DNA from: an uncultured Bacteroidota bacterium
Lineage (GTDB): Bacteria; Bacteroidota; Ignavibacteria; UBA10030; UBA6906
Direction of reading: 5' to 3'
Assembly: GCA_963779225.1 (NCBI GenBank)
Contig: CAVZWW010000003.1
Span: 1,010,034-1,074,033, forward strand
Length of the DNA stretch: 64,000 nucleotides
Made by a program: the position numbers and the translations under genes. The notes beneath the pieces are model-generated. The model did no database searches and was not told the DNA's origin. It saw nothing but the letters and a program-made list of their open reading frames with translations. The stretch's first letter is position 1; every line of letters starts with the position of its first letter. Of the stretch, positions 20,403 to 47,143 are shown piece after piece.

Positions 20403-22763
20403 ATGAGATCGTTCTTCTCTCTATCGGATGGTTGCTCCTCCGGGTTGCCCGCCATTGCGTGGATCGTGCCTGTCTGGTTGTTCATGGCAGGACCGGCAAT
20501 TGCGCAGGTCGACACCACCACGCATGGCTGGCCCGTTGCGCCGTTCTTCTCGACGCATCCGATCACCGGAGTATTCTGCGAGTTCCGCAATACGCTCACC
20601 AGCGATCATTTCCACAACGGCGTGGATATCCCCAGGGCGGACGGTACTCCGGTCTATCCCGTGTACGACGGAGTGGTGACAGCCATTGGAACAACAGCAA
20701 ATTCGGGGGACAACGCATACGTGCGGGTCAGATATTCCGTCAGCGGTCTCACGAAGAGCGACGCCTACGTCCACATCAACCCCAACCCGCTCCTGTATGT
20801 CGGAGGTCCGGTGGTCGCCTACCAGACGGTACTGGGGACCATTCTGCCGGGGCTCGGGCATACCCACTTCACCCACGGTCTCTCCGGTGCGGAGATGAAT
20901 GCCATCCGCCCGGTGGGAGGATTCACGCCCTACATCGACCTGTACCCGCCCCGCATCATGTCTGTCCGGTTTTTTCTGGACGAATCTTCGACGGAGTTTC
21001 TGGGCGGCCGTCTGAGCGGGCCCGTCGACATCCGCGTGCACATCCAGGAGACCAGCGCCGGCACGCCGTCCGACGTGAGCTCATCCACGTCGAACAACGG
21101 CACGTACATCGTGGGCTACAAAATTCTTTCCGCGGATCGCACAACCGTCGTCTATGAACCTCCCTCCGCCGGCGTCCGGTTCAGGTTTGACCGGCAGCCC
21201 TCAAACAACGACGTTCACCGGGTCTTTGCGTCGGGTTCCGATCTCTCGACCCACATCTATACGATCACCAACGGGAACGGCGCCGATATGGTGAACAGCA
21301 CAAAATCGGTGCCGAACAATTTTTGGAACACCGAGACGTTGCCGGTCGGATCCTATACAGTGATGGTCTTTGCCGAGGACACACGCCGGCTCACCGACAC
21401 GGCGTATCTCCCTGTCACCGTGGAACGCGGTGATCTCGTGGCGCCCGCGCCCCCCGTGTTGAAGGCCGTGCTCAACGACAGTACGAACCGGGTGACGATC
21501 TCCTGGTATCCGAATACGGAACCGGATCTTCTGGGGTACCGCCTCTTCTATTCTCTTGACGGGACGGTGTGGACACAGCGTGACAATGAGACGCGCCTCA
21601 CCCGATTCACCACATCTGTTTCATATGACAACATCAGCGGAGGGAGGACTTTCTTCCGGCTCGCGGCGGTGGACTCCGCGTCCCCCACCAATGTCAGCCA
21701 GTACAGCGATGTGTACGGGCTCCGGCTCAACAGTTCCACAACGAAGACACTGATCGTAGACGGTTTTGACAGGACAGAAGGGTCCGGCAGTTATCATCTG
21801 CCGTCGCACCCGTTTGTGATGACGAATGGATTCTCGGTGGCCGGCGATTTCAGTTCGTGTGCAAACGAGGCGCTTCTGGACGGGTCGGTCGGACTCGGAT
21901 CATATGCCGTGGTACTCTGGGTTCTCGGCGACGAATCCACGTCCGATGAAACCTTCTCCTCTGCAGAACAGGGATTGGTGCAGGTGTTTCTGCAGCACGG
22001 GGGAAAGCTCTGTGTGAGCGGGTCGGAAATCGGATACGATCTGGACAGAACTTCCGGACCCTCACAGGCGGACCGGGATTTCCTGCATGATTTTCTCAAG
22101 ACGGCATATGTGGCCGATGATGCCAACGACCCTACGGCCACAGGAGTATCGGGTTCATTGTTCGAGGGACTCTCGCTGCGATATGGAATCGTGGCCGAAG
22201 GTGCTCCGTATGAAGAGGATTGGCCGGATGTGCTGGCACCGATGAACGGGGCGGGTGCTTCGATGTCGTACGGTGCGAGCGGTACGGCAGGTACCGCCGG
22301 CATCACATTCTCGGGTCTTTTCCCCGGCGGCGTGCGTCCGGGTGCCGTGATGGTTCTGGGCTTTCCGTTCGAGACGATCACGGAGAGAGGAAAACGTGAT
22401 TCACTGATGTCCCGGATATTCACCTTTTTTGGGGGTGTCACGGGGGTGAATCACTCCATTCTGCCTCCCCCTGTTGCGGGCACCTTTGCGCTTGAACAAA
22501 ACTACCCCAACCCGTTCAATCCAACGACGGCGATAAGGTATCAAATCGGTGGGGATGGAGATCGGGGGTCGGGGGCCGGCCATGTGAGGCTGGCGGTCTA
22601 CGATGTTCTGGGCCGCGAAGTGGCACTGCTGGTAGACGAGGTGCAGGAATCGGGGCTTCACGATGTGACATGGGATGCCCGGAATGTCGCGAGCGGTGTC
22701 TACTACTACCGCCTCACAGCCGGATCGTCAGTTGCCGTACGGACGATGACGGTGCTGAAATGA
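20403..22763 (+). CDS. T9SS-secreted M23-family metallo-endopeptidase with FN3-like and alpha/beta accessory domains
   Basis: DHFHNGVDIP (HxxxD), GTPVYPVYDGVV, YVHI and HTHF (HxH); FN3-like VTISWYPNTEPDLLGYRLFY; EQNYPNPFNP CTD; start uncertain. Confidence 0.8.
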   Translation: MRSFFSLSDGCSSGLPAIAWIVPVWLFMAGPAIAQVDTTTHGWPVAPFFSTHPITGVFCEFRNTLTSDHFHNGVDIPRADGTPVYPVYDGVVTAIGTTANSGDNAYVRVRYSVSGLTKSDAYVHINPNPLLYVGGPVVAYQTVLGTILPGLGHTHFTHGLSGAEMNAIRPVGGFTPYIDLYPPRIMSVRFFLDESSTEFLGGRLSGPVDIRVHIQETSAGTPSDVSSSTSNNGTYIVGYKILSADRTTVVYEPPSAGVRFRFDRQPSNNDVHRVFASGSDLSTHIYTITNGNGADMVNSTKSVPNNFWNTETLPVGSYTVMVFAEDTRRLTDTAYLPVTVERGDLVAPAPPVLKAVLNDSTNRVTISWYPNTEPDLLGYRLFYSLDGTVWTQRDNETRLTRFTTSVSYDNISGGRTFFRLAAVDSASPTNVSQYSDVYGLRLNSSTTKTLIVDGFDRTEGSGSYHLPSHPFVMTNGFSVAGDFSSCANEALLDGSVGLGSYAVVLWVLGDESTSDETFSSAEQGLVQVFLQHGGKLCVSGSEIGYDLDRTSGPSQADRDFLHDFLKTAYVADDANDPTATGVSGSLFEGLSLRYGIVAEGAPYEEDWPDVLAPMNGAGASMSYGASGTAGTAGITFSGLFPGGVRPGAVMVLGFPFETITERGKRDSLMSRIFTFFGGVTGVNHSILPPPVAGTFALEQNYPNPFNPTTAIRYQIGGDGDRGSGAGHVRLAVYDVLGREVALLVDEVQESGLHDVTWDARNVASGVYYYRLTAGSSVAVRTMTVLK

Positions 22764-23944: not shown

Positions 23945-26900
23945 ATGAAGGTGTTTGCTACTCTGTGCACCGCTGCCCTGATCCTCCTCACCACAGTCGC
24001 ATTTTCCGGAACGACCGGCAAGCTTGCCGGGACGGTGAAGGACTCCAAGACGGGCGAACCGCTGCCCAGCGCGAACGTCGTCATCGAAGGAACAACGCTC
24101 GGCGCAGCAACGAATCCTGACGGCTATTTCGCCATTCTCAACATCCCCCCCGGAAGTTACCGTGTTGTGGCGAACCTTGTGGGATACAAACAGGCCTCGG
24201 CGGTCAATGTCCGTGTGGACATCGACCAGACGACCGATCTGAACCTCCGGATGAACGAAGAAGCCATCACCGGCGAAGAAGTGACGGTGGTAGCTTCCCG
24301 GCCGGTGGTGCAGAAGGACGTAGCCGCCAGCCGTGCGAACATTGAAGCGGGCGAAATCCAGAAACTCCCCGTGACAAGCGTGCAGAGCGTGATAACGCTG
24401 CAGGCGGGCATCCAGGGTGATCTGGTGATTCGCGGGGGCGGGAGAGACCAGACCGCATTCGTCATGGATGGCATGATGTTGCGCGACGAGCGTACCAACC
24501 AGCCATTCACAGGAATCAGTCTGAGTTCAATTCAGGACGTGCAGGTTCAAACCGGTGGTTTCAGTGCCGAATACGGAAACATCCGTTCGGGCGTAGTAAA
24601 TGTTGTAACGCGCGAAGGAGGGAGATCGAACTACAGCTTCAATGTCATCGGGCGCTACCGGCCGGCGGCACCGAAGCATTTCGGTGCGTCCATCTATGAT
24701 TTCAACTCGTACTGGGTCCGGCCGTACGTTGACGATGCCGTGGCCTGGACCGGCACCTCGACTTTGGGTTCTGATGGACAGCCGGTGTGGGATCAGTGGA
24801 CACAGGCACAGTATCCGGATTTCGAGGGGTGGAACAGCGTCTCGCAGAAGTTGCTTGCAAGCGGTGTCACTCTCTCTCCGGCGGCGGCACAGGAGGTCTG
24901 GTTGTGGGAGCATAGACGGCAGGCGGAAGTCAACGCCCCCGACTGGGATGTGGATATGGGATTTGGAGGTCCTGTCCCGTTCATTTCCGAGCAATTGGGT
25001 AATCTCCGTTTCTTTGCCTCGTATCGCCAGCAATCCACGCAATACCTTGTTCCTCTTTCCCGGAATGGCTACCAGGAATACAACGGTCAGTTGAAGATCA
25101 CCTCCGACGTCGGACCGGGTATGAAGCTGATGGTCTCCGGCCTGATCGCAAAACTGGATGGCACGAACGACAACAACGTCGGGAATGCGGGGATGTTCCG
25201 CACCGCGTCCGATATCGCCGCGTCACTCACCAGTGCGAACAGTGTTTCCGGCTACGTTGACGCACGGTTCTTCGGGACGGACTACTGGGCCCCGACCACG
25301 ACAAATATCAAGATGTTTGGTGCAAAGTTCTCGCATGCAATCAGCTCATCGACCTTCTACGAAGCAACGGTTCAAACATATTTCCAGGGCACCGATACGA
25401 GCCCGGGAACCCTGAGGGATACGGAGAAGAAGTTCCTCTTCGGGAACAACTACTATGTGGATGTGGCCCCGCTGGGTTATATGCCCTATCCCAGTACGGG
25501 AATTACCGGGTTGCGCATGGGTGTGGGTATGAGCAACTCGCGCGACAGGAGCCGCGTACAGTCGACGAATCTGAGATTTGACATGACCAGTCAGCTGGAC
25601 AAGTACAACCAGGTGAAGGCGGGCCTGGAGTTCAGCTACACGGATAACAATGTCGAATCCTACAATGAAGACATTGTTCTCCCGACCGGCCGTTACGACG
25701 GGAGCTGGCACAACTATCCGCTCCGCGGCGCGCTCTACTTGCAGGACAAGCTGGAATTTGAAGGCATGATTGCCAATCTCGGTGTGCGTGTCGAATACCT
25801 GAATCCGAACGGGGACTGGATCGATTACCAGGAGGATCCATTCAACAGTGTCTTTGCGGGGGGGGATCTCTACCAGGTCTTCCCGGTAATCTCCGCGCCG
25901 GCGACACTGACTGTAAGCCCCCGTCTGGCCATCGCATTCCCCATTTCCGACGAAGCGAAGTTGTTTTTCAACTACGGGCATTTCCGTCAGGTGCCGGATC
26001 CGACCAACGTGTTCATGCTGTCGCGGTACACGGACAACGAACAGGTCCGGAGTATCGCCGATCCCGGAGCGCCATTCCCGATGACCGTCGCCTACGAGCT
26101 TGGTTTTGAGCACAGTCTGCTTGACGAGTATCTGCTCCGCGCAGCCGCGTACTACAAGGATGTTTCCAACCAGGGGAAGACCGTCACGTATGTCGGCCGC
26201 AACTCGCTGGTGAATTATACGCAGCGCACCAGCAATTCGTATCAGGACATCCGCGGTTTCGAGCTTACGGTCAGCAAGAACCGCGGAAAGTGGGTCCAGG
26301 GGTTCATCAACTACACCTACAGTGTTGTTACGGCGGGGTACTTCGGTCTCGGGTACCAATACGAGAGTGCGGCGGACCAGCGGAACTATGAACGGACGAA
26401 CGTGTACCAGGAGAAACCGATTCCGCAGCCGTACGCACGGGCGAACATCGATTTCTTCACGCCGCCGGAATTCGGACCCGAGGTTATCGGCCTGAGCCTC
26501 CTCGGCGACTGGCGTTTGAATTTCATCGGATCCTGGTCTGCCGGCCGCTACGACACATGGGCGGGCGGGGGAACCATCCAGGGGCTGCAGTACAACGTGC
26601 AGTGGAAAGACTACTGGAACGTGGATATGCGTCTCAGCAAGAATTTCCAGTTCGGCAACGCGAACCTGCAGTTCTTCATCGACGTTTCCAATCTCCTGAA
26701 CTTCCGGTACTTCCCCGGGACCTACGGGTTCTTCGGCAATCGTGACTACGACAACTACATGAAGTCACTCCACCTGCCGGAATTTCCCGCGCAATTCGCG
26801 ACGGCGATCGGCTATCAGAATATTGCGGGTGAGGACCGGCCCGGAGAAGTGCGAAAAGAAGGTGTGCCCTACCAGCCGATTGTTGCCCTTCTGCAAATGG

Positions 26901-27127
26901 CCGATCTCGCCAAGCCGGCGAATCAGCAGTCGCGCCCCTTCTATTACGTGGCAGAAGTCAACCGGTACTACCGCTTCGTCAATGGTCAGATGCAGGAAGT
27001 GGACCAGGGGACGCTGGATCAGGTCCTGAAGGACAAAGCGTACATCGACATGCCGAATCAGGAAGCCTTCACCTTCCTGAATCCGCGCAATATCTTCTAC
27101 GGCATTCGTTTGTCGTTCGACTTATGA
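23945..27127 (+). CDS. TonB-dependent receptor with N-terminal carboxypeptidase-regulatory-like domain (module 3; non-SusC type)
   Basis: AGGAG SD; GTTGKLAGTVKD..GEPLPSANV; plug IRGGG..GGFSAEYGNIRSGVVN; ALYLQDKLEF; terminal PRNIFYGIRLSFDL. Confidence 0.92.
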   Translation: MKVFATLCTAALILLTTVAFSGTTGKLAGTVKDSKTGEPLPSANVVIEGTTLGAATNPDGYFAILNIPPGSYRVVANLVGYKQASAVNVRVDIDQTTDLNLRMNEEAITGEEVTVVASRPVVQKDVAASRANIEAGEIQKLPVTSVQSVITLQAGIQGDLVIRGGGRDQTAFVMDGMMLRDERTNQPFTGISLSSIQDVQVQTGGFSAEYGNIRSGVVNVVTREGGRSNYSFNVIGRYRPAAPKHFGASIYDFNSYWVRPYVDDAVAWTGTSTLGSDGQPVWDQWTQAQYPDFEGWNSVSQKLLASGVTLSPAAAQEVWLWEHRRQAEVNAPDWDVDMGFGGPVPFISEQLGNLRFFASYRQQSTQYLVPLSRNGYQEYNGQLKITSDVGPGMKLMVSGLIAKLDGTNDNNVGNAGMFRTASDIAASLTSANSVSGYVDARFFGTDYWAPTTTNIKMFGAKFSHAISSSTFYEATVQTYFQGTDTSPGTLRDTEKKFLFGNNYYVDVAPLGYMPYPSTGITGLRMGVGMSNSRDRSRVQSTNLRFDMTSQLDKYNQVKAGLEFSYTDNNVESYNEDIVLPTGRYDGSWHNYPLRGALYLQDKLEFEGMIANLGVRVEYLNPNGDWIDYQEDPFNSVFAGGDLYQVFPVISAPATLTVSPRLAIAFPISDEAKLFFNYGHFRQVPDPTNVFMLSRYTDNEQVRSIADPGAPFPMTVAYELGFEHSLLDEYLLRAAAYYKDVSNQGKTVTYVGRNSLVNYTQRTSNSYQDIRGFELTVSKNRGKWVQGFINYTYSVVTAGYFGLGYQYESAADQRNYERTNVYQEKPIPQPYARANIDFFTPPEFGPEVIGLSLLGDWRLNFIGSWSAGRYDTWAGGGTIQGLQYNVQWKDYWNVDMRLSKNFQFGNANLQFFIDVSNLLNFRYFPGTYGFFGNRDYDNYMKSLHLPEFPAQFATAIGYQNIAGEDRPGEVRKEGVPYQPIVALLQMADLAKPANQQSRPFYYVAEVNRYYRFVNGQMQEVDQGTLDQVLKDKAYIDMPNQEAFTFLNPRNIFYGIRLSFDL

Positions 27128-27187: not shown

Positions 27188-29297
27188 ATGAAGAATCTCG
27201 TCACTTTCGCAAGCATCGTTCTTCTTCTCGTGCTTGCCCCTTCGGCGTCCCGTGCGCAGGGTTATGAAACCCAGTGGATGTCCGTGGGTTCGTTGCATAA
27301 CTGGTATGCGAACATGGGATGCGAGAAAGAAGAAGGGCATGCGCTGAAACAGCAAGACGGTCTGCAGTGGGAGGCGATCTACCTCAACCAGGACATGCAG
27401 GCCGCGAAAGGACTCTGGATCGGGACGACAAATTTCCAGGACGCGGACGGCACGGTGTATCCCAAGAAAGTCATCACCAACGGGCCGCGGTATAGCGGGA
27501 ACAACGTCTTCTTCCCCCAGAAATTCGAATTGGTATCGAAGTTCGATCCGCCTGTCGTTAGCGTCGATGGGGTCCTTTCATACGGAAAGCTGGTGGATGT
27601 GAAGCGGGTGGATCCCGCGATCACCGGTGACCGGATGATCATTAATGAAGTGACCACCTCGATCGGCCTGAAAATGATCAGGAAGATCTTTCAGTTCAGC
27701 CAGGAGTACCACGATGACTATATCGTGAGCGACTACCGCTTCATCAATGAATCCGGGAAGCGTCTGGATTCGGTGACGGTGTATTTCCAGTACCGGTTGT
27801 CGGTGTGCGCCACCACGCGATATGTGATCGGCAATGCCACCGGCTGGGGGATCAATGCCATGCTCGACACGCGCGGGGATGGAGTGAAGAATGACGCTGA
27901 CGACGCGGTGACTGTGCCGGGTGTCTACAGTGCCCCGCACATGCGCATCCAGTATGTGTATCATGGCAAGTATCCGGGCTTCACCTCCTATGACAATCTT
28001 GGGGGACCTATCTGGGTTCCCGCATCCGTCGCCAATTACGGAGACCCCGCCGACACGGTGGGGCGCCTGGGTGCCGCGCAGTTCGTGGGGGTTGCCACAC
28101 TGCACGCCGACAGGTCGGCTACGGACACCACCGATGACCTGGCGCAGCCGTCGACCACATCATTTGAGGGTTCGGACGAATCGCTGCAGCAGCCGGATGC
28201 CGACATGTTCAACGCGCCCCGTATGGCGGCCAAATGGGATTGGATGACGAAAGGTCACGTCAACCCGCGGCATGCCGACAAAGTGGAGCCGGCAGGGAAA
28301 ATTCAGCGAACCGACAGGGGATCCGGCGCTTGGCACGCCGGGAGGATTTTCCAATGCCAACGGATACGGGCCCTACACGCTTGAACCCGGGCAGGCTTTT
28401 CATATCGTGATGGCCGAGGGGGCTTCGGCGTTGAGCCGGGAGAAGCAAATTTCCGTGGGACGTGCGTACAAAGCTGCACCCAGCCCCGCCACCGCCAAGA
28501 TCAAGAATGAAGCCTTTTTGACAGGAAAGGACTCTCTCTTCCAGGTATTCCGCCGGGCGATAGCCAACTTCAAGACGGGTTGGCAGCTTGCCGAGGCGCC
28601 GCGTCCCCCGAAAGTGTTCACCGTAACATCGCAGGGAGACAAGATCGCCCTCTCCTGGGATCTGTACGACCCGGGAGACCCGAACGTCAAGGGATTCCGT
28701 CTGTACCGTACCGTGGGAAAGTATGACGCCCCCGACACTCTTATCGCCGATCTCCCCGGTTCAGCCCGCGGGTACAACGATGTGAGCGCCGTCCGCGGCC
28801 AGCAGTATTTCTATTACCTTCTCGTTGTCGGTGATCCGGCCTCCAACACCGGAGGAGCCCTGACGCCTCCGGGGATTGCCCTTACGAGCAGCCGGTATTA
28901 TGCCCAGACCTTCGACCCCGCATATCTGCGGCGCCAGGCGGGTGACCAGGACACCACAAATACGTGGGGCCCTGACAAGAACGGCCCCTGGACGATGAAT
29001 GACATCCGCATTGTTCCGAATCCCTACAGCATCAGTTCCAATCCCTCGACGCTCAGGTTTTCCGAGGCGCCTGACCGGATCTTTTTCTTCAACATCCCCG
29101 GCTACTGCAAGATCAGAATCTTCACGGAGCTGGGTGAACTGGTCAAGGAAATCGACCACACGAACGGGAGCGGGGACGAATACTGGAACTCCATTACGTC
29201 TTCCAACCAGGTGGTGGTCAGCGGCATCTACATCGTGGTGTTTGAGAACACCAACACCGGGGAGCGGGTGATCAAGAAATTGTCCGTGATTCGCTAA
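27188..29297 (+). CDS. TBDR-partner protein (module 3) with variant T9SS CTD; split by one extra base near 28295-28301 (702 aa when repaired)
   Basis: ORFs 27188-28384 and 28272-29297 join as ..KVEPAGK|FSEPTGDP.. if one base is removed from GGGAAAA; FQFSQEYHDDYIV, GYGPYTLEPG, FN3-like domain and IRIVPNPY..FFNIPGYCKIRIFTELGELV CTD match partners 1 and 2. Confidence 0.8.
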
Positions 29298-29314: not shown

Positions 29315-30325
29315 ATGAGAACGACCGTTGTAGTTTTGGTGATTGTGCTTTGTTGTGCCGTGGCTCTTCCCTCGTCCGCGGTGGCGCAGAAGAAGCTCGC
29401 GCAGACCGGAATGAAATTCCTGAACATCCTGCCGGACGCGCGCGCCATTGCTCTCGGTGAAGCATATACAGCTGTGGAAGGATCGGCATCCACGCTGTTC
29501 TTCAATACATCCAGCATGGCACGTCTGAAGGGATTTACAAGCGTCTTTCTCGCACGGACCAACTGGATCGCGGATATGAGCCACATGTATGCCGCGGCCG
29601 CATTCAGCCCGTATGACGGAGAATACGGCGTGATCGGGTTCTTCTTCCAGTCGGTGGATTATGGAACATTTGAGGAAACCATCCGGTCAACGAACGATCG
29701 CGGGTATCTTGATCTTGGCACATTCAAGCCGACGGGCATCATGTTCGGGGTTGGTTATGCGCGCGCGCTCAACGACAAATTCTCGGTCGGCGGTAATGTG
29801 AAGTATGTCCGCCAGTCGCTTGGCGATGCCACGAATGAACTGGCGGCCGATGGCACTCCCATAAAAGTGTCGAATACCACCAGTGTGTTTGCCTTTGATT
29901 TCGGCATCCTGTACAGAACCGGTTTCAAGAGTCTGAACTTCGGCATGACGGTCCGGAATTTTGCGAAAGAAGTGGTATACCAGAAGGAAGGGTTCCAGCT
30001 GCCGCTCACGTTCAGGATCGGCGTGTCGATGAACGTGCTCGACCTGACCGACATCGAACCACAGATGCACCAGTTCCTGGTCGCCGCAGACGCAGAACAT
30101 CCCCGCGACTTCCCGGAGATGCTGCGAGTGGGAGGCGAATACAGATTCCTGGATATCCTCTCCCTGCGGGTCGGCTATGTGTCATCGGCCGATGAGTATG
30201 GTGTGTCGTACGGTGCCGGCGTGCGCAAGGATTTCGACTCATTCGGTTTCGGCTTTGATTATGCCTATGTGCCGTTCGGCGTATTTGACGCCGTACACCG
30301 TTTCTCTTTCCAGTTCTCGTTGTAG
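29315..30325 (+). CDS. PorV/PorQ (UPF0164) family outer-membrane beta-barrel (module 3)
   Basis: Signal peptide; KLAQTGMKFLNILPDARAIALGEAY, FSVGGNVKY, LPLTFRIGV and FDYAY..VHRFSFQFSL. Confidence 0.85.
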   Translation: MRTTVVVLVIVLCCAVALPSSAVAQKKLAQTGMKFLNILPDARAIALGEAYTAVEGSASTLFFNTSSMARLKGFTSVFLARTNWIADMSHMYAAAAFSPYDGEYGVIGFFFQSVDYGTFEETIRSTNDRGYLDLGTFKPTGIMFGVGYARALNDKFSVGGNVKYVRQSLGDATNELAADGTPIKVSNTTSVFAFDFGILYRTGFKSLNFGMTVRNFAKEVVYQKEGFQLPLTFRIGVSMNVLDLTDIEPQMHQFLVAADAEHPRDFPEMLRVGGEYRFLDILSLRVGYVSSADEYGVSYGAGVRKDFDSFGFGFDYAYVPFGVFDAVHRFSFQFSL

Positions 30326-30365
30326 AAACGTGATTCCGCAAACGATTGACAACAGGACACGACGT

Positions 30366-31568
30366 ATGAAACCCTATGTACGTATCCTTCTTCTTTCCGG
30401 CCTGGCCGGACTTGTTCTGGGAGTGTTCGGGGGCTGCAAGGAAGATCCTCCCACCAGCCTCTATGACCTGCCACGCGAGACACGCCCGCAACCGGTCATT
30501 ACGAGCATTGACCCTCCGGCGAGTGCGCTGGCGGGGGTGACCGCCATTACCATCACGGGAAGCAACTTCTCAGCGGTGAAGGAGGAGAATCTTGTCTATT
30601 TTGATGCAACGCTGGCATCGATCCTGAGCGCCTCGGCGACGCAACTTGTGGTGCGTGCGCCTAATCTCGTAAAGGACTCCGTCACACTTCGTGTGATGGT
30701 CTACAAGGGTGAATTGTTCAGCACACCGCGACAGTATCAGCTCGTTGCGACGGTCGAACCGTTCGGGGGTCTCGCCCAAATCGAGGAACCATACGGCGTG
30801 ACAGCTGATGCGGCAGGCAACATCTATGTGTCCATCGTCTCGGGCGGGACGGGCGTTGGGGTGAAGAAGATCACTCCTGCCGGCGTGAAGTCGGACTATT
30901 CGCCGGCCACCCCGGGCGTGACCCGGTGGTCCGGGATGAAGATTGGACCGGGCGGCGTTCTGTACACCGCACGCATCCTCCGCGTCATCTATCAGATCCC
31001 CGCGGGAGGAGGGGCGGCGGCGATCTGGGTCACCGGCTCCGCCATCGGATCGATCTATGATATGGATTTCGATGCGGATGGAAATTGCTGGGCCGTTGGG
31101 AACAACACGTCGATCTACAGGGTGAAGCAGGACAAGACCATCAAGCCGTTCGCTTTCACCGGGAATGTCCGTGCCGTCCGGATTTACAACGGGTACGTTT
31201 ACCTCGGCGGGAAGGTTGATGCAACAGAAGGTGTGTGGCGTGCACAGATCATCAATGCGGACAGTCTGGGGGCATTCGAACAGTATTTCGATTTTACGGC
31301 GAAATACCCCACCGGGCTTGTCAATGCGCTGACCTTTGCCGCCGACGGCGATATGTACATCGGTACCGATGCGGACGAGGCTATTGTCATCGTGCACCCG
31401 GGCAAGGTGTCGGAGCCGCTGTATCCGGGTTTGTTCGCGCCGACGACCTTTGCATTTACGTGGGGGCTCGCTGACGATATGTACGTCGTCAGAACGGTGA
31501 ACACGCCGGCCCTTCTGAAAGTGCGCATGCTGAAAAACGGTGCACCGTATTACGGGAGGCAGCTCTAG
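30366..31568 (+). CDS. Lipoprotein with IPT/TIG domain and NHL/SMP-30-like beta-propeller
   Basis: Lipobox VFGG-C followed by KED; PVITSIDP..ITITGSNFS (IPT/TIG); PYGVTADAAGNIYV and DMDFDADGN blades. Confidence 0.85.
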   Translation: MKPYVRILLLSGLAGLVLGVFGGCKEDPPTSLYDLPRETRPQPVITSIDPPASALAGVTAITITGSNFSAVKEENLVYFDATLASILSASATQLVVRAPNLVKDSVTLRVMVYKGELFSTPRQYQLVATVEPFGGLAQIEEPYGVTADAAGNIYVSIVSGGTGVGVKKITPAGVKSDYSPATPGVTRWSGMKIGPGGVLYTARILRVIYQIPAGGGAAAIWVTGSAIGSIYDMDFDADGNCWAVGNNTSIYRVKQDKTIKPFAFTGNVRAVRIYNGYVYLGGKVDATEGVWRAQIINADSLGAFEQYFDFTAKYPTGLVNALTFAADGDMYIGTDADEAIVIVHPGKVSEPLYPGLFAPTTFAFTWGLADDMYVVRTVNTPALLKVRMLKNGAPYYGRQL

Positions 31569-31802
31569 AGGGGGGAGGGTGCGGGAAGGGGAGCGGAAAA
31601 CAGCAGCCTCCGCAAGGCGGGCAACAAAGAGCAAGTATCAGGCAATAGGTCGCACGCAACCAGAAAAAGGCGTCACCTCACAAACAACAGATAACACGCA
31701 GCAAGCAACAACCTGCAAGCAACCTGTAAGAAGTTACAGGTGGTGGGTAGTCTGCAGGTGAAGGAGGTCCGTATCCATATCATCAACCGAAAGGAGTCAC
31801 TT

Positions 31803-35908: not shown

Positions 35909-37153
35909 ATGAAACTGATCAAAAGCGGACGGGAATGGATCGGCGTTTGGCTGATCATGGCCTGTCTCTGTATAGCTACCGGCCTGGCGACGAGCACCGG
36001 AATCGCACAGACGACGGAGAATGGTATGATTGGTGATCTGATCAAAGAAGCACGGCTACAACTTGCGCCGGACCGGCGAACGACGGTTTTCAACGTACAT
36101 GCCGAAACACGGGGCCCGGTGACCATCCTGACGGGCGAAATCCACAGCCCGGCCCTCAAGGAACGGCTGCTCGGGCTCCTGAAAGAGAAAGGCATGACAT
36201 CCATCGTCGACAGCATCACCACCCTGCCACAACCATCACTGGGCGAGAAAACCTACGCGGTGGTCAGCCTCAGTGTGGCCAACATCAGAACCAAACCGGA
36301 CCATCCGGCGGAACTGGGAACCCAGGCGATTCTGGGAACACCTCTCCGGGTTTTGAAAAAGGAAGAGGGGGGATGGTACTATGTTCAGACGCCCGATGAG
36401 TATCTGGGATGGACGGACGACCGGATCGTGCTCATGACCGAGGCCGAATTTTCCGGCTGGGGGCGGCTGCCAAAGGTGATCATCACTACAGAATGGACCA
36501 TCGCGCGGGAAAAGCCGGAGGCAGGGAGCCAGGCGGTCAGCGACCTCGTTGCCGGATGTCTCCTTGCGCTCAAGGCGGATGCAGGTGCCTTCTATGAAGT
36601 CGGGTATCCAGACGGACGAAGTGCCTTTGTACAGAAAGAGGAAGCAGCACCCTATGCCCGGTGGCTCGAGCATGTGCAGGCAACGCCCGAAGCGATTGTG
36701 AGCACGGCAAAACGGTTCTTCGGAGTGCCATATTTCTGGGGAGGGACGTCTGCGAAATGCATGGATTGTTCCGGATTTACCAAGACGGTCTACTTCCTGA
36801 ACGGGCTCCTTCTCCCCCGGGATGCGAGCCAGCAGGTATTCGTCGGTGAACTTGTAGAGACGGCCGGCGATGTGAACCTCCGGCCGGGCGATCTGCTCTT
36901 CTTCGGGTTCAAGGCCACGCCGGAACGGCGCGAGCGTGTGACACACGTTGCCATCTCCCTCGGAGGGAAACGGTTTATCCACGCTTCAGGTGGGACGGGA
37001 GTTTGCGTCAACAGCCTTGATCCCGGGGAAGCAGACTACAGTGAATTCCGCGAGGAGACATTCCTCCGGGCAAAGAGAATCATCGGCAGTGCAAAAGAGT
37101 CCGGTGTGAAATCCCTGAGGGAACTCCCCTATTATGGCAGACAGGCACAGTAA
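35909..37153 (+). CDS. NlpC/P60 (C40) gamma-D-glutamyl endopeptidase, YkfC-like, with SH3b domains
   Basis: SVANIRTKP..ELGTQAILGTP..GWYYVQTPDEYLGW (SH3b); PYFWGGTSAKCMDCSG, LPRDASQQ, PGDLLFF, HVAI and FIHAS; N-terminal export signal. Confidence 0.92.
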   Translation: MKLIKSGREWIGVWLIMACLCIATGLATSTGIAQTTENGMIGDLIKEARLQLAPDRRTTVFNVHAETRGPVTILTGEIHSPALKERLLGLLKEKGMTSIVDSITTLPQPSLGEKTYAVVSLSVANIRTKPDHPAELGTQAILGTPLRVLKKEEGGWYYVQTPDEYLGWTDDRIVLMTEAEFSGWGRLPKVIITTEWTIAREKPEAGSQAVSDLVAGCLLALKADAGAFYEVGYPDGRSAFVQKEEAAPYARWLEHVQATPEAIVSTAKRFFGVPYFWGGTSAKCMDCSGFTKTVYFLNGLLLPRDASQQVFVGELVETAGDVNLRPGDLLFFGFKATPERRERVTHVAISLGGKRFIHASGGTGVCVNSLDPGEADYSEFREETFLRAKRIIGSAKESGVKSLRELPYYGRQAQ

Positions 37154-38336
37154 GCATCCTGCGCACCCGTCCCCCCCATCCTTCCTTCGAAACGAAGAGG
37201 GGGAGCCCGGGCAGCGTACCACGCGGCGTGATTTTCTCCGTTACGTAACTCTCGCAGGAGCGGCGGTCGCACTCGGCCCGCGCGCCGGCAATGTCCCTTC
37301 TTTCACCATTCCGGTCACCGACATGAAACTCCGATTCTACCCCTATACGCTCGAACTGAAACACGTCTTCACCATTGCCACCAGTTCCCGCACCACCACA
37401 CCCGTGATGATGGTGGAGGTGGAACAGGATGGCATCACCGGATACGGCGAGGCTTCCATGCCTCCATATCTGGGCGAAAGCCAGGAGAGTGCGCGCGCCT
37501 TTCTCTCGAAAGTTGACCTTTCGCGCTTTTCCTCCCCCTATACTCTTGAAGACGTGCTGGCGGATATTGATGCCATCGCCCCCGGGAATCCGGCCGCAAA
37601 AGCCGCGGTGGATATTGCGCTCCACGACTGGATCGGAAAGAAATTCGGGCAGCCCTGGTACCGCATCTGGGGACTGGATCCCGCCAAGACCCCGGTGACC
37701 TCTTTCACCATTGGGATCGACACACAGGAGGTCGTGCGGCAAAAGACCCGCGAGGCGGAGATCTACAAAGTGTTGAAGGTGAAACTGGGCCGCGAGACGG
37801 ACAGGATGATGATCGAAACGATCCGCGAGGTATCGGACAGTCCGATCTCGGTGGACGTCAACCAGGGATGGAAGGACCGGAATGAGGCTCTGAAGATGAT
37901 CGAGTGGCTGGCCACAAAGAATATTCTCTTCGTGGAACAGCCGATGCCGAAGGAACAGGTGGACGACATCGCCTGGCTCCGCGAGAAAAGCCCCCTGCCG
38001 TTGATCGGCGACGAGAGCGTGCAGCGCCTCCCGGATGTGCGGAAGGCCTGGGGAGTGTACGACGGCGTGAACATCAAGCTGATGAAGTGCACCGGTATGC
38101 GCGAAGCCTATAAGATGATCACGCTGGCAAGGGCGCTCGAGATGAAAGTGATGATCGGCTGCATGACCGAGACCTCCTGCGCCATTTCCGCAGCCGCGCA
38201 GATGTCGCCGCTGGTGGATTGGGCGGACCTGGACGGCGCGGTGCTCATCAAGAACGACCTGTTCGACGGCGCAACGATCGTGAACGGCAAGGTCACGCTT
38301 CCCGACCGTCCGGGGATCGGCGTTGTGAAGCACTAG
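37134..38336 (+). CDS. L-Ala-D/L-Glu dipeptide epimerase (enolase superfamily) with twin-arginine signal
   Basis: KVKLG, VDVNQGW, VEQP, GDES, NIKLMK, GCMTE and DLDG; N-terminal TTRRDFLR plus a hydrophobic stretch; adjacent to the YkfC-like gene, as in ykfBC. Confidence 0.9.
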   Translation: MADRHSKHPAHPSPPSFLRNEEGEPGQRTTRRDFLRYVTLAGAAVALGPRAGNVPSFTIPVTDMKLRFYPYTLELKHVFTIATSSRTTTPVMMVEVEQDGITGYGEASMPPYLGESQESARAFLSKVDLSRFSSPYTLEDVLADIDAIAPGNPAAKAAVDIALHDWIGKKFGQPWYRIWGLDPAKTPVTSFTIGIDTQEVVRQKTREAEIYKVLKVKLGRETDRMMIETIREVSDSPISVDVNQGWKDRNEALKMIEWLATKNILFVEQPMPKEQVDDIAWLREKSPLPLIGDESVQRLPDVRKAWGVYDGVNIKLMKCTGMREAYKMITLARALEMKVMIGCMTETSCAISAAAQMSPLVDWADLDGAVLIKNDLFDGATIVNGKVTLPDRPGIGVVKH

Positions 38337-43717: not shown

Positions 43718-43721
43718 GACC

Positions 43722-44639
43722 ATGCGAAAAGTGATCTGTATTCTCCTGCTCTGCGGGAGCGTTTCGGCCGCTTCCGGACAGATCCGGATCACCGCAACCC
43801 GCCCGCTGGACCTGCCGGCCGCTCAACAGTGGCTTGCACCCCGGTTCGCCCCGGACGGGCTCTCCATTTTTCTGACCACAAACGGTTATGCAGGTATTTA
43901 CCGGTATGTGACCGCCACGGGCGAACTCCAGACAGTGACCGATGAACCCGGAGCCGGATTCGGTTTCGCCGTGTCGAAGGACGGCAACCGCCTGGCGTAC
44001 CGCCGGACGGCATACGGGCGGACCGCCTTCGAGCGGACGCAGGAAATCGTAGATGTCGATCTCCGGAATCGGACGCGTGTGAACCGGGGAGCCGGCGACA
44101 ATCTCTCCACACCGGTGTTTCTCGGGGAAACGATCCTCTTCAGCACACGAACGGAAGCAGCCGTCATCCCGCAGGCGGACGGCGTCGAACAAGGTGCCGT
44201 TCTCCTCGGCATCGAAGAGACAAAAATCGCGCTTGTCGTGAATGGCCGGAAAGTACTGCTCGACCCGTTCAAAGACGGAAGTTACGTCTGGCCTTCTCTT
44301 TCTCCGGACGGTTCAAAACTCGTCGCCTACGAAATGGCCCGAGGCACGTTTGTGTGCGACCTTGCCGGCACCGTGCAGGCAAACCTCGGACGGCGGGATG
44401 CCCCCGCCTGGACCCGGGACGGACGGTGGATCGTCGGCGTGGAGGAGAAGGACGACGGTCACCGGATCCTGGGCGCCGACCTTTTTGCGATGGCCGCTGA
44501 CGGGTCACAGACCGTCCGCCTTACGGATTCGCCCGCTATCGAGCTCAATCCTTCCTGTTCCCCTTCAGGCAATGTCATCGTCTGCAATACGGCCGACGGG
44601 AAGATCCTCCTCCTGAATTATGAGGAGGTGCTGCGATGA
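43722..44639 (+). CDS. Exported TolB-like (PD40) beta-propeller protein
   Basis: Signal peptide; PRFAPDG, PSLSPDGSKLVAY, PAWTRDGRWI and PSCSPSG repeats; ATGA overlap with the next gene. Confidence 0.8.
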   Translation: MRKVICILLLCGSVSAASGQIRITATRPLDLPAAQQWLAPRFAPDGLSIFLTTNGYAGIYRYVTATGELQTVTDEPGAGFGFAVSKDGNRLAYRRTAYGRTAFERTQEIVDVDLRNRTRVNRGAGDNLSTPVFLGETILFSTRTEAAVIPQADGVEQGAVLLGIEETKIALVVNGRKVLLDPFKDGSYVWPSLSPDGSKLVAYEMARGTFVCDLAGTVQANLGRRDAPAWTRDGRWIVGVEEKDDGHRILGADLFAMAADGSQTVRLTDSPAIELNPSCSPSGNVIVCNTADGKILLLNYEEVLR

Positions 44640-47143
44640 AACGGCTCCTCCTTCTTTTCTTCTCTCTCGTGTTCGTCGTCCTCACCGCATCGGGTCAGCG
44701 GACGGACCTGAGCGGACTCAAGTTTTGCATCGATCCCGGCCACGGGGGGAACAACCCTGCGAACGACCGGCACGTTATTCCGGACCCCGGCACCGACTTC
44801 TGGGAGTCCGAAAGCAATTTCCAGAAGGCCCTGCATCTGGACACGCTCCTGAAAGCTCAGGGTGCATGGGTGATCCTGACACGGTATACAAATTCCTATC
44901 CTGCGGACGACGAGCCGTCGCTCAGTGCTCGGTGGCAACTCGCGAACGCCAACAACGTGAACTGGTTTCACTCGCATACACACGAACGCCTTCAACGGTA
45001 CCGTGAACTATACGCTTCTGCTCGTGAAGGAAGACATCGCCACACGTCAGCCCGCATGGCCGCAGGCGGTGACGATGTCCAACATCATCGGTCCGGCTAT
45101 TCAGGCGAAGCTGCGCAACACCCCGCGTTCGACGTATACATATCTGGACTACACGTTTTATGGTGGTCCCCCCAACGGCTACAATCTCGGTGTCCTGAAC
45201 GGTCTGGCAATGCCCGGAGAACTCTCGGAAGGATCGTTTCACGACTATTATCCCGAAACCCGCCGTCTGATGAACAATTCTTACCGGAAAATGGAGGCGT
45301 ACGCTCTCCGCGACTCCTTCATGCAATATTTCGGTGTTCCCGCGGACACGCTCGGGATCATCGCGGGACTGCAGGTGGATCTGGCCACCGGGAAACTGCT
45401 GAACCTCTCTCGTGTGCGCCTGGTCCCGGGCAATCGTATCTACACGGGCGATACGTTCAATAACGGGTTCTATATGTTTGACAGTGTTCCGGCCGGCCTG
45501 TACACGCTCTACTTCGAAACTCCAGGCTACACGCCTGATTCCGTTCTTGTCAGCGTGGGCACTGGAGGGACGGTGTTTGTGGACCGCTCTTTCGTGTCAT
45601 TTGCCGCGCCGACCATCGTCACGTCCAGTCCTGTAAAGAATGATCCGGCATTTCCGGCACCGAACCCGATCGTGATCAATTTCTCGAAACCGATGGATAC
45701 GGCATCGGTCCGGAGTGCATTTTCCATTTCGCCACCCGTCGAATGGCGCCTTCCTCTGGTCCAACGGAAACGCAAAACTGACGTTTGACCCCGATTCGAT
45801 TCTTCCGGTGGCTGTTGACCTTTACCGTCCGGCTTGATACCTCCGCGCACTCCGCCACCGGCCAGGTGCTGGACGGCAACGGGGATGGGACACCGGGCGA
45901 CCCGTTTGTCCTCTCCTTTACGTCAAAGTATGTGGATATCTTTCCGCCGGTATTTCTCTCGCGTTTTCCGGGTTCGGCCGACACGTTGCGCACGCCGGCC
46001 TCCTACGTGAATATGACTTTCGACGAACCTCTGGCCGTGTCCAGCGTCAACATATCCAATTTTGTGGTCCAGCAAATAGGCGCTTCCATTCAGGTCCGCA
46101 CGCTGGAGTACAGGGAAGAAAACGGGCGCGGAGGAGTGGTGATGTACCTGCCGAACGGCGTCATCCCGGGGGTCTCCTACCGGACACGCGTCAGCAGGGT
46201 TGCCGATGCTCTGGGGAATGCCATGCCGACGACACTATCGTCTCTGTGGGATTTTGCCGTGGATCCCGGATTGTTCAGCTATCAGACAATTGATTCACTG
46301 AACCCCGGATCGATTGCCTTCCTCCAACCTTCCGCTGGAACGGGAACGGTGGGGGTTGATGGTGCCATGTTCTCTGCTTCCACAGCCCGTGCGGTCGGCA
46401 GCGTGCCAGCTAATTCCGGATCGGCAAGTTTGCAGTTTGTGTGGGATACGACTGCGGCATCATGGCTTATCCACCTGCCCATCGATTCCTTGAGCGCAGG
46501 TGGAGGTCTCCGGTGGCAGAAGAGCGGACACCTTATCCGGGCTGCACTTTACGGAGATGCAGGGCAGCAGCAGTTCCGGTTTGCGCTGGGAGACGGTTCG
46601 ACACGGGAGGTGAGCCGGTGGCGGACAGTGGACTGGGTAGGCTGGCGCAATGTTGAGTGGGATCTTGAGCGCGATTCGCTCGGGTCGGGTACAGGCGATG
46701 GGGTGCTGGATGGCGAGCTCCGGTTTGATGCCGTTGAATTCCGTTATCTTCCCGGCTTCAGCAAGCAATCGGGTCAGCTGTACCTGGACCAGATTGAACT
46801 GGTGGAGAAGGGGACAACCGGTGTGGAGTCACGGATGTCATCTGTGCCTGCGGCGTTTGTGCTCCATCCCAACTACCCGAACCCGTTCAATCCCTCCACG
46901 CGTCTCTCCTATGATCTTGCCGCGGCGGGATTTGTGACATTGACCGTGTATGATCTCCTGGGGCGCGAAGTACGGCGTCTGGTGGACGGACAACAATCCG
47001 CAGGGCGGCATACGGTGGAGTGGGATGGCAGCGGTGTTGCCGCAAAGACTTCCAGTGGCGTATATATTGCGCGGCTCCGGGTGACAGGGGAAACCGGTGC
47101 GACGGTGTACAGCGCATCGCTCAAACTCCTGATGATGAAATAA
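44636..47143 (+). CDS. T9SS-secreted N-acetylmuramoyl-L-alanine amidase (Amidase_3) with Ig-like (Big_5) domains; split by three extra bases (834 aa when repaired)
   Basis: IDPGHGG, ESESN; removing C44975 restores SIHTNA; ELSEGSFHD; removing bases near 45741 and 45814-45817 restores a Big_5-like ..PPVNGAFLWSNGNAKLTFDPDSILPVAVTFTVRL..; HPNYPNPFNPST CTD. Confidence 0.8.

Follow-up and report, generated by a model that had tools for sequence, protein, structure and literature searches.

A putative peptidoglycan-harvesting locus with sorting-domain-tagged hydrolases in an uncultured Ignavibacteria-class bacterium

The 64,000-nucleotide stretch of DNA analysed here (the window) is, on balance, probably a PUL-like peptidoglycan (PG)-harvesting locus of an uncultured Ignavibacteria-class bacterium, in which exported hydrolases would feed import and salvage. 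We infer this from the make-up of the wider locus, which combines hydrolases with export signals, TonB-receptor modules, salvage enzymes and an AmpG-family permease (Table 1). A sequence-only reading had already described a cluster for PG degradation and salvage, and the coherent set of domain-identified genes bears this out; it had also singled out an M23 peptidase, a GHL10 glycan hydrolase and an amidase as three enzymes that end in type-A C-terminal sorting domains (CTDs). That reading is confirmed in part: the genes and their CTDs are present, and the three proposed starts are all real, each an ATG followed by a signal peptide, but the amidase is not one open reading frame. As the genome also carries a MurA gene, the organism is no auxotroph, and the locus would therefore serve nutrition or recycling.

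Table 1 Features of the window discussed in the text.
Position	Strand	Feature	Details
5719..6531	+	VanX-type D-Ala-D-Ala dipeptidase	
20403..22763	+	M23 (LytM-type) metallopeptidase	786 aa; M23, Ig/FN3-like domains, alpha/beta domain of ~230 aa, type-A CTD
23945..27127	+	TonB-dependent receptor of conserved GHL10 module	Near GHL10 in 26/49 loci
27188..29297	+	~700 aa protein	Weak PorZ/CTD-like tail; split by frameshift near 28301
29315..30325	+	PorV/PorQ-family outer-membrane barrel	NF033709 193.4 bits (cut-off 90); near GHL10 in 29/49 loci
30177..31568	+	TIG-domain protein of conserved module	Near GHL10 in 28/49 loci
31740..33245	+	Beta-propeller-like protein	501 aa; type-A CTD; near GHL10 in 22/49 loci
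33393..35762	+	GHL10 glycan hydrolase (Cwp19/DigH family)	789 aa; TIM barrel, Ig-like repeats, type-A CTD
35909..37153	+	YkfC-like NlpC/P60 + SH3 peptidase	Signal peptide
37134..38336	+	L-Ala-D/L-Glu epimerase-like enolase-superfamily enzyme	TAT signal (TIGR01409 25.5 bits)
43722..44639	+	PD40/TolB-like beta-propeller protein	Signal peptide; stop overlaps amidase start (ATGA)
44636..47143	+	Amidase_3 N-acetylmuramoyl-L-alanine amidase	CarboxypepD_reg, two Big_5, unknown domain, type-A CTD; four frame segments
47145..49037	+	AmiC-like amidase (AMIN + Amidase_3)	No CTD; Amidase_3 126.9 bits
49469..50890	+	AmpG-family muropeptide permease	TIGR00901 173.5 bits, below cut-off 350
53454..54692	-	NamZ exo-beta-N-acetylmuramidase	Signal peptide; NamZ_N 284, NamZ_C 128 bits
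55846..58794	+	GH3 NagZ-like hexosaminidase fused to PBP4B/AmpH-like domain	Lipobox-like N-terminus

Lytic endopeptidases of the M23 family include lysostaphin and LytM. The window protein, whose reading frame opens at a TTG at position 20340 upstream of the ATG that precedes its signal peptide, shares their HxxxD and HxH zinc site and the two catalytic histidines; however, its domain is very divergent, scoring 21.7 bits against Pfam M23 (gathering threshold, GA, 28.7) over profile positions 2–53 of 96. A further difference from these enzymes is its setting: the domain forms the N-terminal part of a conserved ~760-aa architecture that also comprises Ig/FN3 domains and an alpha/beta domain similar to domain B of GH42. 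We assign both motifs because H71, D75, H153 and H155, like H69, G73 and H124, do not vary among 26 aligned homologues; all five catalytic or zinc residues (H71/D75/H124/H153/H155) are thus kept in 26 of 26 sequences. A profile built from this alignment matches the M23 structures 9gy1 (E 3.3e-9) and LytM 2b44 (1.7e-4), the AF2 model of the protein has a pLDDT of 82, and the predicted endopeptidase looks active as far as its sequence can tell. Its distribution is patchy (6/31 relatives), with linkage to the GHL10/amidase locus in genomes G001 and G017. Six further loci of the genome match M23, none of which coincides with a CTD match among those listed.

The GHL10 identification is solid, with PF02638 at 228.4 bits (GA 27.9) and a match to Clostridioides difficile Cwp19 (PDB 5OQ2) that aligns the catalytic TIM barrel over ~350 residues (E 2.9e-89 and 6.1e-90). 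The proposed active-site residues named for Cwp19 in PMC5765458 (W, Q, WxxxxR, DDY, S, QxY and G) all have aligned counterparts; the cis-peptide pair differs at one position, F-R in the window protein against F-S in Cwp19. The surrounding architectures also differ: three cell-wall-binding repeats anchor Cwp19, which has a role in autolysis, to a Gram-positive surface, whereas here, in a diderm, Ig-like repeats and a type IX secretion system (T9SS) CTD come after the GHL10 domain.

The genome holds three GHL10 genes, two with a CTD and one, encoding 605 aa, without a CTD at E <= 1. The CTD-less type occurs in nearly all of 30 relatives and is likely a periplasmic housekeeping copy. It is also the better counterpart of Escherichia coli DigH (YddW), which we take to be a GHL10 family member by Pfam and which works in the periplasm at the cell's own septum; the window enzyme has no lipobox cysteine and carries an export CTD instead. 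DigH degrades the denuded glycans that amidases leave (PMC12288456), and the proposal that the amidase acts before the glycan hydrolase, drawn solely by analogy with DigH, may or may not extend to the window enzymes. The sequence-only reading also describes DigH as a lipoprotein, a word that does not occur in PMC12288456. Cwp19, the closest characterised homologue, is called a lytic transglycosylase in the title of a 2018 mBio paper (PMC6016235). In a turbidity assay its GHL10 domain slowly lysed cells of Micrococcus luteus, 13–66 times more slowly than lysozyme, and the available text of the paper on that assay (PMC5765458) describes no amidase pretreatment.

Among 49 wider loci, the main partner of GHL10 is a module that comprises a TonB receptor, a PorV-family barrel, a TIG protein and a propeller (22–29 loci), and PG genes are rarer beside it (epimerase 14, NagB-like 11, amidase 7, YkfC 4). 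This pattern would suit a module directed at another polymer of amino sugars, for instance a chitin-like glycan or an exopolysaccharide, to which the adjacency of PG genes is secondary. So would the protein of ~1000 aa, with fn3 and CBM-like Golvesin_C domains, that is encoded downstream of GHL10 in 11 of the 49 loci, and the statement in PMC5765458 that precise GHL10 substrates remain undetermined. We nevertheless regard such a substrate as improbable, given that the two characterised members both act on PG glycan (Cwp19, PMC6016235 and PMC5765458; DigH, PMC12288456) and that the window enzyme has high identity to Cwp19. The first one or two reading frames downstream of GHL10 (85 ORFs in 48 of the 49 loci) include Amidase_3 in four loci and a YkfC-like peptidase in three, and at family level a CTD-bearing GHL10 shares a locus with a CTD-bearing amidase in five related genomes (G001, G004, G015, G017 and G018).

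The amidase was expected to be one gene product, but in this assembly single-base insertions near 44974, 45741 and 45817 break it into four frame segments. The open reading frames run from 44636 to 45463 (275 aa), 45003 to 45788 (261 aa) and 45785 to 47143 (452 aa), and the Amidase_3 match is confined to the first (profile positions 2–71 of 174, 36.5 bits). Five intact relatives (834–838 aa, 80–92% identical over the aligned pieces) map onto segments 44636–44974, 44967–45740, ~45721–45816 and 45815–47140. In intact orthologues the full Amidase_3 domain scores 54.6–65.8 bits. The adjoining PD40/TolB-like gene co-occurs with the amidase in 7/49 related loci.

We favour assembly (sequencing) error over true gene decay as probably the cause of these breaks, because housekeeping genes elsewhere in the genome are also frame-broken, with mid-protein splits in ilvD and nuoK and two 1-nt insertions in porU, and because the dN/dS of the amidase against G001 (0.106, no stops once indel columns are dropped) matches that of 15 in-frame neighbours (0.07–0.19). 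One may postulate instead, and with a real if smaller chance of being right, that a recent inactivation has made the exported amidase a true pseudogene in this strain; the outward set would then comprise only the M23 and GHL10 enzymes, leaving stem-peptide removal to the periplasmic AmiC-like enzyme. Three insertions lie within 850 bp of this one gene, and no reads covered their sites. Such clustering exceeds the prediction from a uniform error rate, since a single further break was found in the remaining ~61 kb, near 28301; at that break, 24 of 28 related loci have the two pieces of the ~700 aa protein contiguous in a single frame. By eye, the first insertion also falls inside the S-I-H-x-N-A zinc-ligand motif, and the family appears dispensable, with strong orthologues in only 10 of 31 relatives. 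On the other hand, none of the three insertions falls in a homopolymer, which would be unusual for real slippage mutations, and codon-usage signal is undiminished in every corrected frame segment.

The type-A sorting domain (TIGR04183, cut-off 23 bits) is matched by all three enzymes in frames that reach the stop codon, at 40.7 bits for M23, 36.1 for GHL10 and 31.0 for the third reading frame of the amidase. Pfam Por_Secre_tail (GA 27) gives 34.8 and 32.3 bits for the first two and a sub-threshold 18.2 for the amidase, whose third frame also matches FlgD_ig at 36.7. The three are not a set apart, however: the window holds seven CTD matches where genome density predicts ~1.8–2.3 per 64 kb (at least 150 above cut-off in 5.30 Mb, from 150 scored of 188 candidates), and they therefore belong to a larger enrichment. 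Three of the other four proteins look like beta-propellers rather than hydrolases, and the fourth (767 aa) has a weak GH43-like match of 26.3 bits, below the GA of 32.2.

The genome encodes an SprA homologue (804 + 200 bits, one intact 2331-aa frame) and a PorU homologue (820 bits). The models detected none of the canonical motor genes PorK/L/M in this genome: GldM (TIGR03517, PF12081) and GldL (TIGR03513) had no match, and GldK had only sub-threshold matches (80 against a cut-off of 350 bits), one of which, on examination, was an FGE-sulfatase-type cargo protein. The machinery for export is therefore either unusual or only partly recognised. The GldM model found nothing in 14 genomes of the same class but matched in 15 of 47 genomes from elsewhere in the phylum. 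This undetected motor is what could be said for a scenario in which none of the three enzymes leaves the periplasm and all serve to remodel the organism's own wall, their CTDs being non-functional relics or serving another purpose. We consider that scenario very improbable, as so many proteins keep an above-cut-off CTD beside the SprA and PorU homologues, homologues in several phyla retain the CTDs of all three enzymes, and separate CTD-less paralogues exist for GHL10, Amidase_3 (two) and M23 (the six other loci, none at a listed CTD match).

Three TonB-receptor modules occur in the locus; after each receptor come a large protein whose tail weakly resembles PorZ/PorU CTDs and a barrel of the PorV/PorQ family. 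The proposed periplasmic placement of the salvage enzymes fits signal peptides judged by eye, including the TAT signal of the epimerase-like enzyme (PRK15129 146 bits, below its cut-off) and the lipobox of the NagZ fusion. In the harvesting model, the Sec-dependent, CTD-bearing M23, GHL10 and Amidase_3 enzymes would cross the outer membrane by an SprA/PorU-type (T9SS-like) pathway and act on cell-wall material of foreign origin, either on the cell surface or outside it. Fragments would be taken up by the TonB-dependent receptor modules and trimmed in the periplasm by NamZ, the NagZ fusion, the YkfC-like peptidase, the TAT-exported epimerase, VanX and the AmiC-like amidase, after which AmpG would carry them over the inner membrane into amino-sugar catabolism.

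The same enzymes might instead be mainly weapons against living competitors or prey, and bacteriolysis of Gram-positive cells, a purely inferential suggestion, would be in keeping with the complete M23 catalytic set, the lysis of M. luteus by Cwp19 (PMC5765458) and the reported degradation of Bacillus cereus walls by Cytophaga-Flavobacterium bacteria (review PMC11205867, citing Peterson 2006). We think this unlikely as their main role: their genes are embedded in a locus for uptake and catabolism, complete with three TonB receptors and an entire salvage pathway, which fits feeding, no immunity or toxin-delivery genes were seen, and the Cwp19 domain is slow relative to lysozyme (PMC5765458). 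One set of enzymes could, however, serve both roles.

Among known systems, the harvesting model comes close to the PG salvage of Tannerella forsythia (NamZ1/NamZ2, AmpG, MurK), likewise a member of the Bacteroidota that uses NamZ-family exo-muramidases and AmpG on foreign peptidoglycan, and PG has been proposed as a general nutrient in Bacteroidetes (10.1101/2021.12.02.470905). Unlike T. forsythia, the window organism has MurA and is no MurNAc auxotroph, and its locus adds a CTD-tagged endopeptidase, amidase and GHL10 enzyme together with the TonB-receptor modules, an outward front end of which we found no description in the abstracts and titles of the literature on Tannerella-type salvage. 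The locus equally recalls SusC/SusD PULs with T9SS-secreted enzymes, where surface or secreted hydrolases likewise lie beside TonB-dependent receptors and periplasmic or cytoplasmic catabolic enzymes. It differs in that the SusC model (cut-off 368) scores the receptor at only 56 bits and no SusD-like gene was detected in the locus, the large PorZ/PorU-CTD-like-tailed protein and PorV/PorQ barrel being found instead, and in that its proposed substrate is peptidoglycan rather than a plant or algal glycan.

The window is a peptidoglycan (PG) locus, and we consider it most likely to serve extracellular or surface digestion of foreign PG, TonB-dependent uptake and salvage. A near-continuous run of genes occupies the plus strand from ~16.6 kb to 59 kb. 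Peptide-stem enzymes are represented by a YkfC-like NlpC/P60 + SH3 peptidase, a TAT-signal L-Ala-D/L-Glu-epimerase-like enzyme and VanX, and the amino-sugar and glycan set comprises a NagX-like membrane protein, a NagB-like fusion, NamZ and a BadF-type sugar kinase. A GH3 NagZ-like hexosaminidase fused to a PBP4B/AmpH-like β-lactamase-fold domain, a class-A β-lactamase-fold protein, an AmiC-like AMIN-Amidase_3 protein lacking a type-A T9SS C-terminal sorting domain (CTD), and AmpG are also encoded. By eye, signal peptides are present on NamZ, YkfC, the β-lactamase-fold protein, a PD40 propeller (the stop codon of which overlaps the amidase start) and AmiC, NagZ has a lipobox-like cysteine, and no signal peptide is seen on the BadF-type kinase or the NagB-like protein. 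The epimerase-like enzyme bears a twin-arginine signal (TIGR01409, 25.5 bits), which implies that its step is periplasmic; in textbook recycling the L-Ala-D/L-Glu epimerase step is cytoplasmic. With MurA encoded in the source genome (550 bits), MurNAc auxotrophy is excluded. NamZ is reported to work at peptide-free MurNAc ends in cooperation with NagZ and an amidase (PMC8054146). At the far end of the window, positions 60001-64000 have a GC content of 0.52-0.54 vs about 0.58 before, include a DUF932 protein and may lie at the border of a segment that is mobile or of foreign origin.

Coordinates of features in the window and elsewhere in the source genome (G000, contigs C1-C3; positions without a contig are window positions; GA, Pfam gathering score)
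Feature	Position	Size	Remarks
TonB-receptor module	1-5881		
TonB-receptor module	9008-16483 (-)		
TonB-receptor module	23945-30325		
M23 enzyme	from 20403	786 aa	TIGR04183 40.7 bits; Por_Secre_tail 34.8 bits
Fourth window break, near 28301	27188-29297	398 + 341 aa	two overlapping ORFs; one ~700-aa protein in relatives
GHL10 enzyme	from 33393	789 aa	TIGR04183 36.1 bits; Por_Secre_tail 32.3 bits
Epimerase-like enzyme	37134-38336		
Amidase, first ORF	44636-45463		
Amidase, second ORF	45003-45788		
Amidase, last ORF	45785-47143		TIGR04183 31.0 bits; Por_Secre_tail 18.2 bits (below GA)
Amidase, frame segments	44636-44974; 44967-45740; about 45721-45816; 45815-47140		
NagZ-like fusion	55846-58794	982 aa	lipobox-like N-terminus
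DUF932 protein	62118-63416		
GHL10 paralogue	G000:C1:210938-213358	806 aa	type-A CTD 31.5 bits
GHL10 paralogue	G000:C3:705041-706858	605 aa	signal peptide, fn3 domain
TonB-receptor modules outside the window (examples)	C3:2269120-2276759; C1:562496-569370		
ilvD	G000:C2:377930-379572		IlvD N/C halves split; 1 nt missing vs both G001 (same genus) and G018 (related genome)
nuoK	G000:C3:3010461-3011056		mid-protein split, positions 2-44 and 44-94
porU	G000:C2:14061-17380		two 1-nt insertions, 112 nt apart

The protein at 33393 is unambiguously a GHL10 enzyme of the Cwp19/DigH family. PF02638 matches it at 228.4 bits (GA 27.9), and its barrel aligns with Clostridioides difficile Cwp19 (PDB 5OQ2) at E = 2.9e-89 / 6.1e-90. 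The active site proposed for Cwp19 consists of W36, Q77, W127, R132, D195-D196-Y197, S250, Q295, Y297, G328 and F367-S368 (PMC5765458); with correspondence judged by eye, these positions are identical in the window enzyme save S368, which is replaced by R. A turbidity assay showed lysis of Micrococcus luteus cells by Cwp19, and the available text of that source describes no amidase pretreatment (PMC5765458). DigH is reported to act on denuded glycans (PMC12288456), and this activity is the sole basis on which, by analogy, the amidase-first order of the sequence-only reading might be extended to the window enzymes. The source genome has three GHL10 paralogues, two of them with a CTD (that of the window and a second at C1:211 kb). 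The third, of 605 aa, has no CTD detectable at E <= 1; its type is kept in nearly all of the 30 relatives searched, and it is likely the housekeeping DigH counterpart. This split into exported and non-exported paralogues provides the best single argument that the window GHL10 faces outwards.

Assignment of the protein at 20403 is less direct by Pfam. PF01551 matches it at 21.7 bits over profile positions 2-53 of 96, and at 25.7 bits in the genome search, both below the GA of 28.7, although the same model is precomputed on many of its homologues. We nevertheless accept the assignment because the protein belongs to a large family, has invariant residues and is linked to M23 structures by profile matches. 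The family, of ~760-aa proteins, yields 354 matches at E <= 1e-5, and H69, H71, G73, D75, H124, H153 and H155 are invariant in all 26 aligned members (44-70% identity to the query); we take these to be the HxxxD and HxH zinc ligands and two catalytic histidines, as in LytM-type enzymes. The family profile recovers the structures 9gy1 (E 3.3e-9), LytM 2b44 (E 1.7e-4) and 5kqb (E 9.9e-4). An AlphaFold model of the protein (pLDDT 82) contains the M23 domain, β-sandwich domains and a ~230-aa α/β domain; Foldseek matched the last of these only to GH42 domain B and the remainder to Ig/FN3 chains, and returned no independent M23 match with the whole model. On this evidence the protein appears to be a divergent M23 peptidase that is predicted to be active.

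The sequence-only reading had placed these two enzymes and the amidase outside the cell by T9SS signals. Both ends of the proteins agree with this and the three starts it gives are correct, with ATG 20403, ATG 33393 and ATG 44636 all opening hydrophobic signal-like N-termini that, by eye, end right before Gln, and with the type-A sorting domain model TIGR04183 exceeding its curated cut-off of 23 bits in each (Por_Secre_tail GA, 27). For the C-terminal ORF of the amidase, the sole Pfam rescue is FlgD_ig at 36.7 bits. Predicted signal-peptide ends at 20403, 33393, 44636 and several neighbours fall at A/Q, S/Q and G/Q. These Gln-preceding ends fit the 'Q-rule' for Bacteroidetes SPI substrates (PMC5837995). 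The count of three holds for the named enzymes but not for the window, in which seven proteins carry a CTD: those of 544, 484 and 501 aa resemble β-propellers (an atlas search with the 501-aa protein returned CTD and β-propeller clusters only), and the 767-aa protein has a weak GH43-like match only.

Genome-wide, at least 150 CTD matches exceed the cut-off (188 candidates, 150 scored). SprA is encoded in a single intact 2331-aa frame (804 + 200 bits), PorU scores 820 bits and is frame-broken near its C-terminus, and PorV/PorQ-family barrels in the window score 193-217 bits. Profile searches of the genome found zero matches to GldM (TIGR03517, PF12081) or GldL (TIGR03513), although divergent homologues are possible, and GldK (TIGR03525) reached at most 80 bits vs a cut-off of 350. 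A GldK-like match at C3:105661 was considered as a ring protein and rejected; it is an FGE-sulfatase-type CTD cargo beside rhamnose genes. GldM was likewise found in 0/14 same-class genomes vs 15/47 other genomes of the phylum. Since CTDs, SprA and PorU are present and GldL/GldM have no match, export by a SprA/PorU-type route with a secretion motor that is not recognised is plausible. A whole class would thus combine 150 or more CTD proteins with no recognisable GldLM motor.

The amidase has the expected start, signal-like N-terminus and CTD, but it is not the single intact gene of the sequence-only reading, being divided as assembled among three overlapping ORFs. The ORF from 44636 contains only positions 2-71 of 174 of Amidase_3 (PF01520; 36.5 bits), with the rest of the domain in another frame. 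Intact orthologues match positions 1/2-171 at 54.6-65.8 bits, and have a complete Amidase_3, CarboxypepD_reg, two Big_5 domains and a CTD. The motifs GHGG, WESE, (S)IHTNA and GELSEGSFHD, presumably supplying the zinc ligands (H, E, H) and the catalytic E, are by eye all present but divided over two frames at the first insertion. We mapped four frame segments using an 857-aa open frame from a related genome (G015) together with five uninterrupted proteins of 834-838 aa from metagenomes, the latter 80-92% identical per piece. Comparison with G001, a genome of the same genus, reveals one surplus base in the window at each of 44974, 45741 and 45817. Each insertion is a +1 shift, which returns the last segment to the frame of the first. 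Programmed frameshifting was rejected, as none of the sites has a slippery motif and close relatives are uninterrupted.

These breaks are probably assembly error, although a recent, real pseudogene is a possible alternative. The latter is favoured by clustering, since three breaks fall inside 850 bp vs one in the rest of the window, more than a uniform error rate predicts. We favour the artefact because frame breaks also hit genes of the source genome that are expected to be intact (ilvD, nuoK and porU), because the amidase resembles its neighbours in selective constraint, and because none of its three insertions lies in a homopolymer. With indel columns removed, comparison with G001 gives 0 stops, 88% amino-acid identity and a dN/dS of 0.106, within the range of 15 in-frame neighbours (0.07 to 0.19); seven further comparisons were omitted as out of frame (stops 2-31), namely the 544-aa and 484-aa CTD proteins, GHL10, epimerase, NagB-like, AmpG and NagZ. 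In public reads, the best run contained 0.14 of the sampled words, and contigs from four runs span none of the three insertion sites.

The source assembly (5.30 Mb, 3 contigs, 100% complete) retains indel errors, as single-base indels interrupt housekeeping genes. At the fourth window break, an A4 run near 28301, vs A3 in G001, shifts the frame of a ~700-aa protein that is contiguous in a single frame in 24 of 28 related loci. A codon-usage segmenter gave 396 filtered candidates genome-wide, including 194 strong same-strand frame switches, but the filtered detector is impure and caught one of the four known window breaks; 10 random strong candidates comprised 2 clearly true (the IlvD and NuoK splits), 1 probable, 4 false (separate overlapping genes) and 3 undetermined cases. 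A first version of the detector was discarded, its 1221 candidates being mostly antisense shadow ORFs. G001 was also rejected as a clean reference. It is syntenic along the entire window (loci L009-L012, G001:C9:108001-182000; 82-93% nucleotide identity), and over the syntenic 64 kb it has ~60 single-base insertions relative to the source genome that break many genes (the receptor gene has 6 of them, the NagB-like gene 8); it looks like a poorly polished long-read assembly. Frame errors in long-read metagenome-assembled genomes can therefore mimic pseudogenes, in precisely the genes of interest.

Uptake genes in the window have a recurrent arrangement, encoding in succession a TonB-dependent receptor, a large protein of 700-1257 aa whose tail resembles the PorZ/PorU CTD, and a PorV/PorQ-family barrel. 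Three such modules lie in the window and about ten more elsewhere in the genome; the tail matches are weak (E 8.7e-6, 8.9e-4 and 0.043). The SusC model TIGR04056 scores 56 bits on the receptor vs a cut-off of 368, SusD-family proteins gave zero matches among the ORFs scanned, and the adjacent SusC-family receptor and SusD-family lipoprotein that mark a SusC/SusD polysaccharide utilisation locus were thus not found. PorZ is held at the surface by PorQ, and the module may be a counterpart of SusC/SusD, with a dedicated PorQ-like barrel retaining the surface partner.

Parts of this arrangement recur around GHL10 in other genomes. We confirmed 601 GHL10 relatives in genome_contigs, the best of them in Ignavibacteria/-ales/-aceae, other Bacteroidota, Rhodothermales, Neomarinimicrobiota and Kapaibacterium metagenome-assembled genomes, and separately 400 amidase-type homologues were retrieved. 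Partners were counted ~10 kb either side of GHL10 in 49 loci of at least 15 kb, out of 80 genome_contigs loci; M23, at 10.6 kb upstream, lies beyond this flank and is absent from the scoring. The ~700-aa protein and the PorV-family barrel each occur in 29/49 loci, the TIG protein in 28, the TonB receptor in 26 and the 501-aa CTD propeller in 22, followed by the epimerase (14), the NagB-like protein (11), the CTD amidase (7), PD40 (7) and YkfC (4). A Pfam scan of 85 ORFs directly downstream of GHL10 (48/49 loci) showed that 4 loci encode an Amidase_3 protein there, 3 a YkfC-like peptidase, 4 an additional receptor and 3 another GHL10 with a CTD; in one further GHL10, no CTD was detected.

A Golvesin_C (CBM-like) protein also lies downstream of GHL10 in 11/49 loci (L035, L037, L040, L041, L044, L047, L052, L066, L069, L076 and L097), with fn3 in 9 of the 11. 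It is ~1000 aa long in 10 loci and 523 aa in L041, and one copy has a borderline Amidase_3 match (27.0 bits). The Golvesin_C/fn3 protein has no NCBIfam match, and its sole PDB match is a xanthan-lyase C-terminal module.

At family and order level, across 31 genomes including the source, some GHL10 is found in 30, strong amidase orthologues in 10 and the M23 type in 6. GHL10 is linked to the amidase within a single contig locus in G001, G004, G015, G017 and G018, and in G001 and G017 this locus also includes M23.

Sediments and soils contain much organic carbon and nitrogen in the form of PG. Physiological work has reported that Bacteroidota grow on the walls of other bacteria, and salvage in the periplasm and cytoplasm is known; to our knowledge, the genes for extracellular attack on PG and for its uptake across the outer membrane have not been defined. 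In the system proposed here, foreign PG would be attacked at the surface or outside the cell by three complementary specificities, directed at the peptide cross-link, the MurNAc-L-Ala amide and the glycan; the pieces would then be taken up through TonB-dependent transport, and would finally enter known periplasmic and cytoplasmic salvage chemistry. The enzyme set may either kill living Gram-positive cells or scavenge debris. In this locus and its conserved relatives, the concrete candidates are three exported hydrolase families, the receptor module and the propeller protein. One may postulate, as a broader and rather unlikely reading, that Ignavibacteria and neighbouring FCB lineages possess a dedicated PG utilisation system of new architecture, with CTD-exported M23, amidase and GHL10 outside the outer membrane, TonB receptors paired with a large barrel-held exported protein instead of a SusD lipoprotein, and a canonical GldL/GldM motor that is unrecognisable.

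Use of peptidoglycan as a nutrient has been proposed for Bacteroidetes (10.1101/2021.12.02.470905), and a T9SS review states that Flavobacterium johnsoniae was fed by Bacillus cereus peptidoglycan (PMC11205867, citing Peterson 2006). We found no description of a T9SS PG-hydrolase toolkit or PG utilisation locus in the literature outside most subscription journals. The component families, the salvage pathway and many types of hydrolase as T9SS cargo are already known; what is new is that, in Ignavibacteria-type genomes, CTD-tagged PG hydrolases are paired in a specific, conserved way with a receptor module of non-SusD type.
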